A stretch of 48,380 bases of DNA from assembly GCA_027053075.1 (NCBI GenBank), contig JALUEE010000027.1:1-48380 (forward strand). Reading direction: 5' to 3'. The notes under the pieces are model-generated. The model was not told the DNA's origin and did not search any database. It saw only the letters and a list, made by a program, of their open reading frames with translations. Position 1 is the first letter of the stretch. Each line of letters begins with the position of its first letter. Shown here one piece after another: positions 18,245 to 36,358 of the stretch. The translations under genes were made by a program, and so were the position numbers. This DNA is from a candidate division WOR-3 bacterium (lineage in GTDB: Bacteria; Hydrothermota; Hydrothermia; B15-G9; WFZT01).

Positions 18245-18369
18245 GAGCCTGTTCGAAAAAATCTCAAATTCTTTGATTTTTGAGGAAAAATTTACCCCCC
18301 ACCTTGTTCCTCCCCCCACGCACAAAGTGCGTGGGGGGAGGAGAGGAGGGGGAATTTTCGAACAAGCTC
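18245..18369. mobile_element. MITE copy 1 (125 bp)
   Basis: TIRs gagcctgttcgaaaa / ttttcgaacaagctc, flanking direct repeat tcgtaatat (18236-18244 and 18370-18378), internal GC-rich hairpin. Near-identical to 29379..29504. Confidence 0.9.
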
Positions 18370-29133: not shown

Positions 29134-29378
29134 GGCAATTCAGGCCCGATTTCACAAGTTTTCATCACACTTTTAAAGAATTGACAATATTGACTAATTT
29201 AATAAAGGGAAAGGAGTGGGAATAAGGAACATTTCCTCACCGTAAAGATGAGAAAGCCAGCAGTGTGCATATATCAATGAGAGTCTGAACATTTCTTTAC
29301 TTACAGAGTCAATTTAGACAATTCATAAGCCACACACAGTAAATGAAGGAAAAGCAATTTTGACGAAAATCGAGGTAT

Positions 29379-29504
29379 GAGCCTGTTCGAAAAAATCTCA
29401 AATTCTTTGATTTTTGAGGAAAAATTTACCCCCCACCTTGTTCCTCTCCCCACGTATAAAGTGCGTGGGGGGGAGAGGAGGAGGGGGAATTTTCGAACAA
29501 GCTC
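29379..29504. mobile_element. MITE copy 2 (126 bp)
   Basis: Same TIRs as copy 1; flanking direct repeat atcgaggtat (29369-29378 and 29505-29514). Confidence 0.9.
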
Positions 29505-29513
29505 ATCGAGGTA

Positions 29514-29542
29514 TTGACATCAAAATACAAAAGGCATATAAA
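29514..29542 (+). promoter_or_regulatory. putative sigma70 promoter upstream of the HEPN/KAP genes
   Basis: TTGACA-N17-TATAAA. Confidence 0.65.
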
Positions 29543-29654
29543 TAATCGTAATCGTAAATTGTGAGAATTCTATCTGAATGAGGTTTCAAGCAATTGGTTC
29601 AACTATATCGCGCAATTAGTGTCATAGTCGGTCACTAATTGTTTGGACTTTACA

Positions 29655-30461
29655 ATGATGAAATCTGTTATTGAACGTTTCAAAGAGGATCTTGACAAGT
29701 TGATTTATAAAGGGGAGCGTCTTCTTTTTTCAATGCAAAGGGAATGTTTTCCTGAAGAATTTGACCGTGCCATGAAGAGAAAATTTGGTGATCAAGTACA
29801 AGATATCATAAACTCCCTTCCCTCTTTTACTGATGAGTATCAGAGTTGGTACTCAGAAGCATTGATACTAATGAAACAACTGCTTCCTGACAGAGTTGCA
29901 GATTTCGTTCGTTATTATGCAAAACCCAGAGGACGAAAAGACATTGACTATGAATCTTACAGAATTGAAAATTATCTTCAAGGCCTGAGAGTAAATAGTT
30001 TAGGTAAAAAAATCGTAGGTCCAGAAGCTGCTATACCTCTTTTTCGACAGCAATTGGCTATGTTGAAGTCTGCAAGACGCCGTTTCGAGAGTTCCATATT
30101 TGATATTCGTCAACTGGTGCAAGCGGACCTCTTTGATTCAGAACTAGAAGCAGCCAAAGTGCTTCTGAAACATAAGTTTTTACGTGCGGCAGGGGCTTTG
30201 GCTGGCGTAGTGCTTGAGCGGCATCTTAAACAAGTGTGTGATAATCATGGCATAAAGGTGAGGAAGAAATCTCCAACTTTCGCCGATTTAAATAATGCTT
30301 TGAAAGAAAACGAAGTTATTGAGATTGTTAAATGGCGCTATATCCAGCACTTGGCGGATATCCGTAATCTATGCACTCATGACAAAAAGGTTGAACCCTC
30401 AACATAACAGGTCGGTGAGTTAATAGATGGTGTCTCAAAATTGACAAAGACAGTATTTTAG
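29655..30461 (+). pseudogene. HEPN-domain (DUF4145-like) protein with premature stop near the C-terminus
   Basis: RAAGALAGVVLERHL and the RX4H motif RNLCTH. After TAA 30405-30407 the frame continues QVGELIDGVSKLTKTVF* to 30461, an amphipathic terminal helix. It may still be expressed as a truncated protein. Confidence 0.65.
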
Positions 30462-30666
30462 CGTTTTACTTTATCCACCTTTAAGGTGGGTTAACCCATA
30501 AGGTAGCAGATTTAGCCTTTACGCTAATTTTGAGGCGGCAATTTGCAATGTGAGTGTCGGGTCTGTTGAAATGGAGTTGTGCTAATCCACAATCTTGGTA
30601 GAAAGAGTGTATATGTATAAATTTCAAACTGCTTCGAAAAAGCAGCACACAGGGAGAAAAAATTAC

Positions 30667-32733
30667 ATGCCCTTAAAGGCCGATAAACCAATTAAAACCC
30701 CAAAGGAAGATGTACTTGGTAGAGCAGAGGTTGCGGTGTCATTTGCTAAGCAACTTTTGTCACTTGATATATCTGAAGGTGTCGTTGTAGGTGTCCTTGG
30801 CCCTTGGGGATCTGGAAAGACATCCTTCGTTAACTTGGTACGGGGATATTTGGAAAATCTCCGTGTTCCTGTGCTTGATTTCAATCCATGGATGTTTAGT
30901 GGCACTGAACAGCTTATAGATTCATTCTTCATTGAACTTTCTGCACAATTGAAACTCAATTCTACCCTTCATGAAATCGGAAAGGCTTTAGAAAGTTACG
31001 GAGAGATTTTTTCTGGGTTGGGCTCGTTACCTTTTGTAGGTCCATTGATTGAAGGAAGTTCAAAAGTTTCAAAGACTTTAGCCAAGATTCTCCAGCGTAG
31101 AGAGGGGGGCATTACCAGTTCTCGAGTCAAAGTTGAGAAAGCTTTGGCAACTCTTGATAAACCGATTGTTGTAATCATTGATGACATTGACAGATTAACT
31201 GTGTCAGAGATTCAGGATATCTTCAAGCTTGTTCGGTTGACCGCGAATTTTCCTAATGTTATTTATATTTTGGCTTTCGATCGTCTTCGAGTAGAGCAAG
31301 CTCTTACTGAGCAAGGTCTCCCTGGTCGTGATTACCTTGAAAAGATACTCCAGATCAGTGTTGACCTCCCCGCAATTCCAAACCAAATACTGAACAGGCA
31401 TATTTCACAAGCTATTAACGAAGCGATTGACGGAATTAAAAATCCTGGTCCATTTCAAAAAGAGCGCTGGCCAGATGTTTTCATGGAAATTATTCGTCCC
31501 TTATTCAAAAACATTCGAGATGTGCGGCGTTATGCACTTGCTGTCCATGGTACAGTACTAAACTTAAACGGCCAAGTTGCCCTTGTTGATGTGTTAGCGT
31601 TGGAGGCTATTCGAGTTTTCCTACCTGATGTTTTCTATCAGATACATGAGTCTATCGACGGACTCACTGAGACCTCTGAGATCACTTTAGATACTTACGA
31701 AAATCAGTCACCCCTGAAGGAGCAGATTGACCAATTGATTGAAACGGCTGGTAATAAAGCTAATGTTGTTCGAGCACTTATAACGCGGATTTTCCCTGCT
31801 GCCGAACGACATATAGGTGGTCTTCGTTACGGAGATGAGTGGAAAAAACGATGGCTTCAAGAACGACGCGTTGCTCATGAGCACATCCTTAGATTTTATT
31901 TAGAACGTCTTCCAAGTAAAGGGTTACAAGCGTTTGTGGACGCTGAGCGGGCTTTCGAGAAAATGGCAAACCTCGAAGAGTTCAACCATTATCTTCGTTC
32001 ACTTGACCCTTCACGGCTGGAAGATGTTATAGCTTCCTTGGAAGTGTTTGAAGATAGATTTCGTGCTGAGCATGTGGTACCAGGGGTAGTTGTGCTACTC
32101 AATATATTACCTGAAATACCCGAGAGACCATTGGGGATGTTTGATTTAGGGCCCGAATTAATTGTGAGCCGTGTGGTTTACCGGTTAATTCGCTCTTTAC
32201 AGGACCACAGTAGAGTAGAGGAAGCTGTTAGAAATATTATTCGCCATCTCAATACCCTTTACGCAAAGGAATTATTGATCACGATGGTCGGCTATCAAGA
32301 AGGGGCAGGACATAAACTTGTGTCAAAGAAAGCAGCAGAGAACTTCGAAAAAGAATGGAGAGATGAGGTACGTTCTGCCTCTATTAGCACTTTAATAAAG
32401 GAAAAAGGTCTCCTCAGAATTTTATTACTTGTGAAACGCAGGGCAGGCCCAGAAGAACCTCCACTGGATATCCCTGATTCACCCTTTATGACTCTTGCTC
32501 TTCTACGATCCGCTCAGGTTGAGGTTTACAGTCAATCTATGGGGAGTCGATTTGTGCGTCCTTCCGTTCGCCTTGCATGGGATGAATTGGTTGAATTGTA
32601 TGGAAGCGAAGATGTTCTTCGTGATAGAATCGAGAAGCTGAAGTCAACACATCCAGAAGGTGCAGATGAACTGCTCTCTTTGGTGGATAAGTATCTCGCA
32701 GGTTGGCGCCCCAGCGATTCTGGTAGAAATTAG
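30667..32733 (+). CDS. KAP-family P-loop NTPase
   Basis: DVLGR, Walker A GPWGSGKTS, FNPWMF, Walker B VIIDDIDRL and YLEKILQ. ATG 30667 with a GGAG SD is preferred. Confidence 0.9.
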   Translation: MPLKADKPIKTPKEDVLGRAEVAVSFAKQLLSLDISEGVVVGVLGPWGSGKTSFVNLVRGYLENLRVPVLDFNPWMFSGTEQLIDSFFIELSAQLKLNSTLHEIGKALESYGEIFSGLGSLPFVGPLIEGSSKVSKTLAKILQRREGGITSSRVKVEKALATLDKPIVVIIDDIDRLTVSEIQDIFKLVRLTANFPNVIYILAFDRLRVEQALTEQGLPGRDYLEKILQISVDLPAIPNQILNRHISQAINEAIDGIKNPGPFQKERWPDVFMEIIRPLFKNIRDVRRYALAVHGTVLNLNGQVALVDVLALEAIRVFLPDVFYQIHESIDGLTETSEITLDTYENQSPLKEQIDQLIETAGNKANVVRALITRIFPAAERHIGGLRYGDEWKKRWLQERRVAHEHILRFYLERLPSKGLQAFVDAERAFEKMANLEEFNHYLRSLDPSRLEDVIASLEVFEDRFRAEHVVPGVVVLLNILPEIPERPLGMFDLGPELIVSRVVYRLIRSLQDHSRVEEAVRNIIRHLNTLYAKELLITMVGYQEGAGHKLVSKKAAENFEKEWRDEVRSASISTLIKEKGLLRILLLVKRRAGPEEPPLDIPDSPFMTLALLRSAQVEVYSQSMGSRFVRPSVRLAWDELVELYGSEDVLRDRIEKLKSTHPEGADELLSLVDKYLAGWRPSDSGRN

Positions 32734-32956
32734 GGGATCAGATTTGCTGAAAAGGTTTCTAAAATGCAATATTGGGGTTAGCAAGCGCTGGAGAAATTGC
32801 TAACAATAGTATTCAGCGGATGTGGCTACACACGAACATAAGTAAAATTTTGACCTGCAATCATGCGCCAAGGGTGAATCGCGAACGGTGACAATATGCA
32901 GGTGATACTAACATCCCTTAGTTTTAATGTCGTAATACTTTAATTGGGAGAGTGGA

Positions 32957-33307
32957 ATGATGATAAATCCGGGATTGAAGGGCAAAGTGGTATTTTTTAC
33001 AGAGGTAAATAACACCTACGGAATCGGTGCGGCTTCGGTCAGAGCATTTGTCACCCATGAAGCGCGTGTGTTTCTCCATTTTTTCCGGTCATTCTCTACC
33101 AACCCTGATCAGGAAGAGATAGACGGTCCCGGGTTTGCCTTTTTCAATGCCCAGCAAAGCAAAACAGCGGATGAAGTCCTTCGGACAATCTACCAGAATG
33201 GTGGGCAAGCGGCAGTTTTCGAACTGGGACAGCATGGTATAACAGTCAAAGTGGTTGCACCGAGGCCAGTTCAAACTGGATATATCACACCAGAGATGGG
33301 GATATAA
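32957..33307 (+). pseudogene. SDR oxidoreductase remnant (internal deletion)
   Basis: LKGKVV...YGIGAA N-terminus joined directly to ELGQHGITVKVVAP-PVQTG. The YxxxK catalytic region is missing. Confidence 0.7.
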
Positions 33308-33390
33308 AGAAAGTTTACTTCTCGGCAAAAAGACTCACTACTCTATCATTCCTGACCTGATTACCAGGAGCTTAAATTGTTCTCACTTCA

Positions 33391-33437
33391 CATTGTCAAC
33401 CTAATTGTCAACCAAATGAATCCTGTTTTTGTCAACC
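33391..33437. repeat. 47-bp direct repeat copy A (3 x TTGTCAACC)
   Basis: 40/47 identical to 34510..34556; overlaps the last codons and stop of the regulator gene. Confidence 0.9.
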
Positions 33438-34495
33438 TCAACACGCCTGAAAAAGGGGATAAGTTCTGGGGGAACATTTATTACTTTAACAATTAAGTCT
33501 TTTTCACCAGACGGGAAAACTCTTAAGAGCTCGTCAAGGAACCCCTGCCCAACCATCTCAACTTTTTTGAAATCAAATATCACCTCTTTAAATTTCCCCC
33601 TTATGGGCTGAACCAATCTTTTTGCCTGGGATCGAGAAATAAGCTTTTTCCCCAGGATAGTCACCACCACTCTTGATATCTGGAAATTAAAATCATACCT
33701 GTATGGCGCATAAATCTCGAATATATCACTCAATCTTTTCCTCATGTTATAGGGTACAACAAAAGCAACAACAGTACCCTTTATGTAACCCTTCAATTTC
33801 TCAACCCAAGCTTCCTGACCATAATTATCAAAATGTAATGCCAGTTTATGAGATTTAATAACCATTTTCCTTGATGCTTTTGATGAGAAAAAAATGCCTT
33901 CACCTGTGTGTCTCTCCTTCTGCGTGGTTGTCTTCCCGGGTATAAGCCATGTAATTGCATCTGATTCAGAATTAAGCCCAAATTCATCTGATATTCGCTT
34001 AAAAATCCCAACTCCATAATCCCTGATTTCCATACTCAAACTGTAATTTTCAAATTTAACAACGACATCTATCCACGGAGACGATGAATGGTCAATGGCA
34101 TTATTGAATATTTCTGTAAAAACATACCTGCAATTATCTAAGGCATTCGTGTTAAGGAATTTTTTCAAATTTGTTACCGCAGCAACCTTATCAAATACTA
34201 TGTCCTCTGACTCATCCGGCTTAAATCTGAACCTTATCTCCCTTTTTATTGCCTGTCTTGCTACCAGATTCCTCGGAATTACTTTTTTACCGATACTTTT
34301 TATTCCCTCTTCGGTTAAAAAATATCCTGAATTTTTTGTTCTCCCGATCTTTAACAACAACCCCTGCTCTATCAGCCTTTTTACCCTTTTATGAACTGCC
34401 TGTCTGCTAATACCAAGCCTTCGACCAATTTCTGAAAGTGTTGTATTATTATCATTGAAGATGTATTCCAGGATTTCCCTATCCTTCTTGTCCAT
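33401..34495 (-). CDS. winged-helix + HATPase + STAS-like (DUF4325) protein
   Basis: HTH EIGRRLGISRQAVHKRVKRLIEQG; HATPase boxes EIFNNAIDHS, DYGVGIF and GEGIFFS; STAS-like SRSQAKRL...DFKKVEMVGQGFLDE. Confidence 0.85.
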   Translation of the reverse strand: MDKKDREILEYIFNDNNTTLSEIGRRLGISRQAVHKRVKRLIEQGLLLKIGRTKNSGYFLTEEGIKSIGKKVIPRNLVARQAIKREIRFRFKPDESEDIVFDKVAAVTNLKKFLNTNALDNCRYVFTEIFNNAIDHSSSPWIDVVVKFENYSLSMEIRDYGVGIFKRISDEFGLNSESDAITWLIPGKTTTQKERHTGEGIFFSSKASRKMVIKSHKLALHFDNYGQEAWVEKLKGYIKGTVVAFVVPYNMRKRLSDIFEIYAPYRYDFNFQISRVVVTILGKKLISRSQAKRLVQPIRGKFKEVIFDFKKVEMVGQGFLDELLRVFPSGEKDLIVKVINVPPELIPFFRRVEVDKNRIHLVDN

Positions 34496-34509
34496 ACTGC
34501 TATATTAGC

Positions 34510-34556
34510 CATTGTCAACCTGATTGTCAACCAATTTAACTTAGTTTTTGTCAACC
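34510..34556. repeat. 47-bp direct repeat copy B (3 x TTGTCAACC), overlapping the promoter
   Basis: On the minus strand the middle box supplies TTGACA-N17-TAATAT-N6-ATG(34495). Confidence 0.9.
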
Positions 34557-34795: not shown

Positions 34796-34826
34796 TTGGG
34801 GCGGGGCCCGAAGGGCCCCGCCCCAA
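34796..34826 (-). terminator. intrinsic terminator after the lipoprotein gene
   Basis: Perfect 14-bp stem ttggggcggggccc-gaa-gggccccgccccaa followed by a T-rich tract on the minus strand. Confidence 0.8.
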
Positions 34827-35622: not shown

Positions 35623-36358
35623 TGCTGAACCTCCTGTTTGAGTTTTAATGAATAATAATTGTGAAGTGCGAATCAATCAAGGTTAAGAGGTGAACTGAGC
35701 TCATTCAGAAAATGCTGAATCTTAGTTACCACCTTTTTCCTACTCCCACAAATCCTCGTAACCTCAACGAAATTCGCAGACCAGTCGGTAAGTTGCCCGT
35801 CCTTCACTGGGAAAGAAAGGGTTAAGGGGGAAATGGGGCATGATTAACACTCTTTAAACTATCAGGGTAACGATATTCCTGAAGATGGTTGGATACTTTC
35901 GCTCGATTATTTTTACATTCCACCCCAACCCTCCCCTCCGAAGGGCTGACGTCACCCACGAATTTCTGGAAAATAACACCTCATCCCTTACCACGACTAC
36001 AAAAAGGTGTACTACGCTCAATATTTGAACACTCTCTTTATACGGTATAAACGAATATATCCTTCCGGTAAAAGTTGTTGATTTAGTGCGAAAAATTGAA
36101 TTTCCCGCCCAGATTGCGTTGTATAAATATACATGAAAAGCAAAAACATGGGTGATGTCAGCTCCGAAGGGAGGGAGGGAGTTTCGCTAATCATTACGGC
36201 TGGTGAATCTTGAGTCATTCAGATTTTAACCTCCTCAATACACTCAACGCAGCACAAATGGATAACCAGGGGGTGACATTTTCTAACAGGTTCGGTGATA
36301 CTTGATAAAATTTACCGTTTACTTTAATTTGTAAGCCTAAAATTAACCGGAGGGCCGT

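Follow-up and report, generated by a model that had tools for sequence, protein, structure and literature searches.

We describe a single gene of the window (the whole 48,380-nucleotide stretch of DNA analysed here) that encodes a winged helix-turn-helix (wHTH), a GHKL domain and a STAS domain in one chain and is bracketed by two three-box arrays, one over its predicted promoter and one across its end. This layout is real, conserved among homologous loci and apparently undescribed. Sequence comparisons lead us to favour, with slightly better than even confidence, a reading in which the winged helix would sit on both arrays, the 3′ set would tighten self-repression, probably by a loop, and the gene would be lost between the repeats.

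Gene, promoter and arrays in the window

The features of the locus are as follows.
33401–34495, (-) strand: wHTH-GHKL-STAS (DUF4325) gene, 364 aa, with matches to wHTH, HATPase_c and DUF4325
34502–34530, (-) strand: predicted leaderless sigma70-type promoter (-35 TTGACA, 17 nt, -10 TAATAT)
34510–34556, (-) strand: promoter-side (5′) array of three GGTTGACAA boxes (box 1, 34548–34556; box 2, 34524–34532; box 3, 34512–34520; spacing 24 then 12 bp), with a triad at the same position in 55/164 homologous loci
33391–33437, (-) strand: gene-end (3′) array, its three boxes and their spacing matching those of the 5′ array
34796–34826, (-) strand: terminator-like hairpin of the upstream gene

An earlier, sequence-only reading of this DNA had reported 47-bp repeats 1119 bp apart, 40/47 identical and mismatched only between their boxes, which proved exact on recount: the repeats at 33391–33437 and 34510–34556 differ at repeat positions 13, 26, 28 and 31–34, seven mismatches that all fall between boxes. 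The three perfect boxes that it placed in each repeat, at 12- and 24-bp spacing, correspond to six perfect TTGTCAACC boxes starting at 33393, 33405, 33429, 34512, 34524 and 34548. The two arrays run in direct orientation, and neither has an inverted arm to match. As that reading had also stated, one array supplies the -35 of a predicted leaderless promoter: box 2 of the 5′ array is the -35, box 3 lies between the -35 and the -10, and the promoter ends 6 nt before the ATG. The other array is indeed written into the last codons and stop of the gene; it overlaps the coding end V-D-K...V-D-N-stop, the encoded C-terminus being RVEVDKNRIHLVDN followed by the stop, and no -10 comes after it. The hairpin at 34796–34826 is predicted to insulate the promoter from read-through, and no terminator-like hairpin was found 3′ of the gene in 33200–33400.

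A scan for further boxes, as that reading had proposed, returned no other cluster in the 2.44-Mb genome. The box word, with 15 perfect copies against about 22 expected under Markov models, is not enriched genome-wide, and the two triads of the window are its only clusters, ruling out a regulon elsewhere in the genome. The gene thus has no visible regulon except itself, and its output is probably the protein itself.

Domain architecture and the acceptor residue

The structure model of the 364-aa protein (mean pLDDT 82) comprises three domains.
34277–34495, (-) strand: winged helix-turn-helix, residues 1–73, recognition helix SRQAVHKR (Pfam HTH_24, E=1e-13)
33740–34249, (-) strand: SpoIIAB/RsbW-like GHKL domain, residues 83–252
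33425–33694, (-) strand: DUF4325/VapS-like STAS domain, with an S-R-S motif at 287–289 and the Gln317 codon at 33545–33547

In structure comparison, the winged helix resembles MarR/DtxR-like folds (Z about 12). The GHKL domain of the predicted model, whose top Foldseek matches were SpoIIAB, aligns to 1l0o_A with Z 14.0 and rmsd 3.1 over 135 residues. Its near-invariant residues are E128, N131, N132, H136, D159, G161, G163, G187, H196, G198 and G200, with N131, N132, H136, G161 and G163 found in 164/164 homologous loci and D159 in 160/164. SpoIIAA provided the top rows for the STAS model (E 0.04, prob 1.00), and VapS was the second-best PDB sequence match of the STAS profile, a weak one (E=0.25). 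In this weak alignment (E=0.25, assuming an 18-residue tag and the numbering of the passages on VapS in PMC13373217), Gln317 aligns to VapS Ser48, the phosphorylated serine. Gln stands at this phospho-acceptor position in 163/164 loci, a count biased by the search pattern, which included that Gln; the residue is also invariant in 50 proteins found without a Gln-containing pattern. Because the acceptor serine position is Gln317, a canonical kinase-to-STAS phosphorylation switch is contradicted. The S-R-S motif, near invariant at the start of STAS helix 1, may be an alternative phospho-acceptor or a phosphate-binding site. Neither a recombinase nor a nuclease domain emerged from domain matches, Foldseek or structure comparison of the protein.

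Five shorter matches of ~240 aa (L408, L409, L412, L413 and L414) consist of winged helix and kinase only, without STAS; in the two examined over their whole length, the kinase motifs are eroded and the promoter boxes number no more than two.

Distribution of the layout across the family

At least 5900 relatives of the protein were recovered among the 7997 candidates scored. At 50% identity, 1065 clusters were counted (E<=1e-30), a large family for which the literature searched yielded no description. Loci were taken as the best 80 of 583 from genomes, the best 80 of 535 from metagenomes and all 35 from viruses, a sample that leans to close relatives because the best loci of longer lists were retained. 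Nine further loci of the window's phylum were added; both ends could then be read in 174, and the removal of 10 near-duplicates left 164. Triads, defined as TTGACA boxes spaced 23–24 then 11–12 with at most two mismatches, occur at the promoter in 55/164 loci, at the gene end in 29/164 and at both ends in 28/164. The 3′ triad is absent from 27 of the 55 loci that have one at the 5′ end; part of the family can thus do without the second array. An earlier pass over both strands of the remaining 2.34 Mb of these loci found only six other triads, of which four lie upstream of the gene, one 99 bp downstream and one 3.4 kb downstream. Most of the genomes are incomplete assemblies. Across the phylum, an exact pattern scan matched 17 of 272 genomes (reversed control, 0); the gene is present in 13 of these 17, with both arrays in all 13 but one, which is split across contigs.

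One contig carries two full array-gene-array copies (L053 and L054) 17.6 kb apart, with 84% protein identity. The 35 homologues on viral contigs (L190–L224) have no TTGACA triads and lie mostly in distant clades of the FastTree tree, and tblastn against plasmid and phage record collections gave no match to the protein. Sixty triad matches in viral contigs were set aside, having no homologue nearby and being mostly 12-nt tandem repeats or coding coincidences.

Among the 28 paired loci, inter-array distances cluster at 1046, 1056, 1066, 1077, 1088 and 1119, while others are half a turn off. Their phasing at 10.5 bp gave R 0.43 on 23 clade-level values and 0.32 on unique values, for a period chosen afterwards and with protein indels as a confounder; a 5.25-bp period, also post hoc, fits the 28 loci better (R 0.61).

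The gene-end array is conserved as a DNA site

When the 5′ and 3′ copies of the same locus were compared (28 loci), boxes were 97% identical, spacers 68% and the 12-bp flanks 34–35%. Ten of these loci have spacers no more than 0.6 identical (mean 0.47), and in them the boxes were still 96% identical. Boxes 2 and 3 of the 3′ array lie at or past the stop in 20/28 and 22/28 loci, respectively, and a -10 (at most one mismatch to TATAAT) follows box 2 in 16/28 of the 5′ arrays against 0/28 of the 3′ arrays. With its outer boxes mostly beyond the stop codon and no -10, the 3′ array is therefore conserved as a set of DNA sites; the sequence-only reading had taken conserved boxes with drifting spacers to suggest selected protein-binding sites. 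Coding constraint was rejected as the source of box conservation, since boxes 2 and 3 are mostly at or beyond the stop, and a role of the 3′ array as promoter for downstream genes was ruled out by the absence of a -10 (0/28). The array geometry is kept in the 3′ copy (long spacer 25/28, short spacer 28/28). Box 1 usually lies directly after the last STAS helix, hence the recurring V-D-N ending, and this position is common to deeply diverged proteins. Spacer identity was 0.68 within loci versus 0.49 between loci (0/100000 permutations), a difference confounded by shared ancestry.

Other operators and the recognition helix

A motif-free alignment of 5′ against 3′ regions was applied to the 164 loci, with 100 shuffles each and a mid-gene control scoring at most 37 points. 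Scores exceeded all 100 shuffles at 43/164 loci, of which 37 were kept after dropping three weak scores and three matches to unrelated repeats. These 37 include six loci whose operator layout is inverted and two whose boxes read TTTACAA, on separate FastTree branches, i.e. two further clades that pair a different operator. The paired arrays in homologues and their covariation with the recognition helix, both suggested as checks by the earlier reading, were recovered: in addition to the both-end triads, helix residues Q-A go with direct TTGACA (90 loci), A-Y/V-Y with both orientations (21), Q-T with TTACG (9) and Q-R with TTTACA (7). Box type hence appears to track the recognition helix, a correspondence confounded by shared ancestry.

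A nested clade of 31 members without a 3′ array has 4.2 upstream boxes on average versus 3.1, often with a second upstream triad, which fits the need for an auxiliary site. Five loci (L031, L036, L040, L127 and L128) display two tandem upstream triads and no 3′ triad, an alternative six-box arrangement.

Filled, solo and truncated sites

Empty sites with one repeat, which the earlier reading had proposed to look for, were identified as solo arrays at four orthologous sites: G004 compared with the window, G064/G065/G066 with G068, G151 with G150, and G280 with G272. In the genome G004, of the same genus as the window, a single array stands in place of the window's array-gene-array. On the gene-end side, G004 agrees with the window flank over ~9 bp, beyond which it also lacks the adjoining 4-kb island, and its promoter-side flank is joined to an intact gene start, a filled allele, in contigs from two studies. 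No contig bridging the G004 junction was found, the far flank lying outside coverage and contigs dropping rare variants. The site filled in G068 is empty in G064 and G065 (two boxes each) and in G066 (three boxes); no direction of change was obtained for G064, G065 and G068 (support 75). The site filled in G150 is empty in G151 (two boxes), and other members of the genus have no array there. Finally, the solo of G280 is clean and in register, with 94% identity to G272 along 1.5 kb.

In total, ten three-box solos (G004, G066, G109, G257, G259, G280, G281, G287, G397 and G401) and three two-box solos were recorded, the crossover register thus varying between three boxes and two; the seven three-box solos other than G004, G066 and G280 are without a matched filled counterpart. 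None of the solo-array genomes, some of which are incomplete, yielded the gene. Two other genomes, G001 and G398, retain only the 3′ part of the gene and the 3′ array.

Spacer changes over 14 pairs comprised 29 concerted sites, common to both copies, and 26 vertical sites, separately inherited. Some lineages would thus reset their two array copies to near identity and others keep them apart for long; spacer identity between the copies reaches 0.9–1.0 in 7/28 loci. Elements that are 93–95% identical also occur in unrelated neighbourhoods, their homology stopping 12–57 bp beyond the boxes, where dispersed repeats abound. The unit therefore also moves, and our favoured reading gives no route for this. 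Neither a circle junction, which the earlier reading had proposed to seek, nor a loop-out joint between arrays was seen in contigs of four sequencing runs; contigs drop rare variants, so that absence is not implied.

The 52 immediate neighbours scanned are heterogeneous and include no recombinase or integrase, no sigma factor and no PIN family (E<=1e-8); PADLOC models match 2/52, leaving a defence role weakly supported. Downstream neighbours are found on the same strand (17) and on the opposite one (15). The G+C content of the gene is below that of its flanks in 31/35 paired loci and in 79/88 unpaired homologues.

At L060 (3930–8560), a second promoter array and a decayed gene start lie 3.4 kb downstream, and the arrays bracket an AIPR/AbiU-like gene and a 376-aa gene without Pfam or PADLOC match. 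Its candidacy as a cargo-bearing cassette was downgraded, the second array being a duplicated promoter with a decayed gene start.

Comparison with known systems

The closest described regulators are CapK and CapS, which respond to DNA damage and are encoded by two genes, HTH-STAS-GHKL and STAS-wHTH; according to the sections of PMC13373217 devoted to them, CapS binds two sites, before and after its own gene, and represses itself, the sites being palindromic TTAA sequences both located in promoters, with activation by single-stranded DNA, phosphorylation of a STAS serine and an immune operon downstream. The protein studied here has the same helix-turn-helix, anti-sigma-type GHKL kinase and STAS parts as in those sections, and the active-site Asn and G boxes of its GHKL domain are conserved. 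It differs from that description by a single ORF in the order wHTH-GHKL-STAS, by direct-repeat TTGACAA triads of which the second has no promoter, by Gln at the acceptor (163/164, from the weak VapS alignment, E=0.25), by the lack of a fixed downstream operon (PADLOC 2/52, mixed orientation) and by loss between repeats. As the VapS phospho-acceptor serine aligns to the invariant Gln, we consider the protein a cousin of CapK/CapS and not a member. A term search of the main text of PMC13373217 returned no fused one-chain form.

The same paper, in its part on VapKSC, presents a toxin-antitoxin system with GHKL and STAS (PMC13373217), and DUF4325 genes coupled to PIN.4 VapC appear in the relevant passages of PMC5499597. 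The GHKL and STAS pairing and the weak VapS match of the STAS profile recall VapKSC, whereas here no PIN toxin stands among the 52 neighbours, a DNA-binding domain is fused and the acceptor serine is absent. The partner switches SpoIIAB/SpoIIAA and RsbW/RsbV, a type of switch that involves binding to a cognate sigma factor, are the closest folds for kinase and STAS; unlike them, our protein is one chain with a winged helix, its acceptor serine is replaced and no sigma factor is nearby.

Repressor loops with auxiliary operators are established for lac O1/O2, lambda OL/OR and deo. The present locus shares with them a second, distant, non-promoter operator under selection, but the predicted loop would contain no gene other than that of the repressor, and its sites are recombining 47-bp direct repeats. 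Integron cassettes and pdif modules have palindromic attC or dif structures, the former together with an integrase. Like these cassettes and modules and like solo LTRs, the unit has one gene, a stop codon inside its terminal site, and filled and solo states; unlike them, it lacks both a recombinase and a palindromic attC or dif structure, and has its own promoter and a variable crossover register. The DUF4325 passages of the literature searched contain nothing on a wHTH-GHKL-STAS architecture, and nothing relevant to the paired-array layout was found in that literature, most subscription papers being outside its scope. Within the same scope, the earlier reading's statement that it knew of no described system with this layout agrees with our search.

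The protein unites in a single chain the stress-sensing parts known from the recently discovered CapK/CapS and VapKS, without their switch residue, and its mode of action must therefore be another. Its operator, present twice, is predicted at single-base resolution, and filled, solo and truncated alleles occur naturally. Self-looping of a gene, and the question whether operator pairing promotes gene loss and spread, are directly testable with a 1.2-kb fragment.

Proposed mechanism and rival explanations

In the reading that we favour, the gene stands alone and its winged helix likely occupies both three-box arrays, the 5′ one over its own predicted promoter, through binding that would be cooperative. 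The 3′ array would act as an auxiliary operator, and a loop of about 1.1 kb is predicted to tighten self-repression. As the arrays are direct repeats, the gene would be lost between them, leaving solo arrays; loss and resetting would involve ordinary short-homology recombination, with no enzyme dedicated to the task. The STAS domain, whose acceptor site carries Gln, may serve the kinase as a brake or sensor that cannot be phosphorylated. This retains from the first interpretation offered by the sequence-only reading a winged helix on both arrays, here a prediction strongly supported by comparison (box conservation outside coding sequence, helix tracking and pairs in three clades); a canonical phosphorylation switch is contradicted by Gln317.

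By analogy with CapK, a stress signal (DNA damage or phage infection, as for CapK) might lift repression, and a burst of protein might hit a host target through released kinase or anti-sigma activity, a speculative extension that is less likely than not. An unlikely one goes further: one protein on -35-like boxes would loop its own gene silent, site pairing would drive excision, amplification and re-insertion at solo arrays without a recombinase of its own, and on stress the fused kinase would break the loop, so that the freed protein shuts down host or phage transcription, possibly on consensus TTGACA promoters.

Among the rivals, an active one-gene mobile cassette survives best, and we regard it as rather unlikely. 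Here the protein would join the arrays and promote a ~1.1-kb circle keeping an intact promoter and gene, which re-inserts at solos or spreads to new hosts, the 3′ array being selected for mobility and not regulation. Thirteen solo arrays, ten with three boxes and three with two, from genomes that yielded no copy of the gene, 5′ and 3′ copies almost alike in several lineages (spacer identity 0.9–1.0 in 7/28), a patchy distribution (17/272 genomes of the phylum, unrelated neighbourhoods) and the two copies on one contig (L053, L054) are what such a cassette would leave. The lower G+C of the gene in 31/35 paired loci points the same way, but is equally common in unpaired homologues (79/88). Moreover, the protein has no recombinase or nuclease domain and no integrase is found among 52 neighbours, registers vary and homology continues past the boxes, 5′ and 3′ spacers are separately inherited in some lineages (26 vertical versus 29 concerted sites, 14 pairs), and insertion at a naive site alone would not yield six boxes. 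The second interpretation of the earlier reading, recombination or iteron-like sites of a mobile cassette, therefore keeps its empty solo sites and its near-identical units in unrelated neighbourhoods; a site-specific or iteron-like function is not supported because there is no recombinase, registers vary, homology continues for 10–60 bp beyond the boxes and no circle appeared in the contigs.

A reading in which the 3′ array is bound but forms no loop appears distinctly doubtful. The array would serve as a roadblock, terminating the transcript of the gene itself or stopping opposing host-gene transcription, or as a sink that sets the self-repression threshold. Such a reading would account equally for the contrast between boxes and spacers, and agrees with the lack of a terminator-like hairpin after the gene in 33200–33400 and with downstream neighbours in either orientation (17 same strand, 15 opposite). 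However, the 3′ geometry is that of the 5′ array (long spacer 25/28, short 28/28), and the second triad upstream in some relatives fits cooperation or a sink better than termination.

A functionless scar of past tandem duplication or gene re-integration is highly improbable: L060 documents that promoter-region duplications happen and several loci have partly decayed 3′ arrays, but boxes that stay 96% identical while spacers drop to 47% largely refute it. The site right after the last STAS helix, common to deeply diverged proteins, and the recurrence of pairing with other operators also speak against it.

Other elements of the window

The gene adjoins a variable island (29214–33381) that is absent from the same site in G004 and G003. 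It contains a 254-aa protein without family match, a PifA-like KAP NTPase (PADLOC E=7e-64) 0.7 kb from the gene on the opposite strand, and a short-chain dehydrogenase remnant. A 216-bp element at about 35941–36162, likely a miniature transposon, has about two dozen copies in the genome at 88–100% identity and many in G004. A 130-bp element with inverted ends occurs at 29370–29505 and 18246–18364 and is multi-copy in G004, where one copy directly adjoins the solo array.
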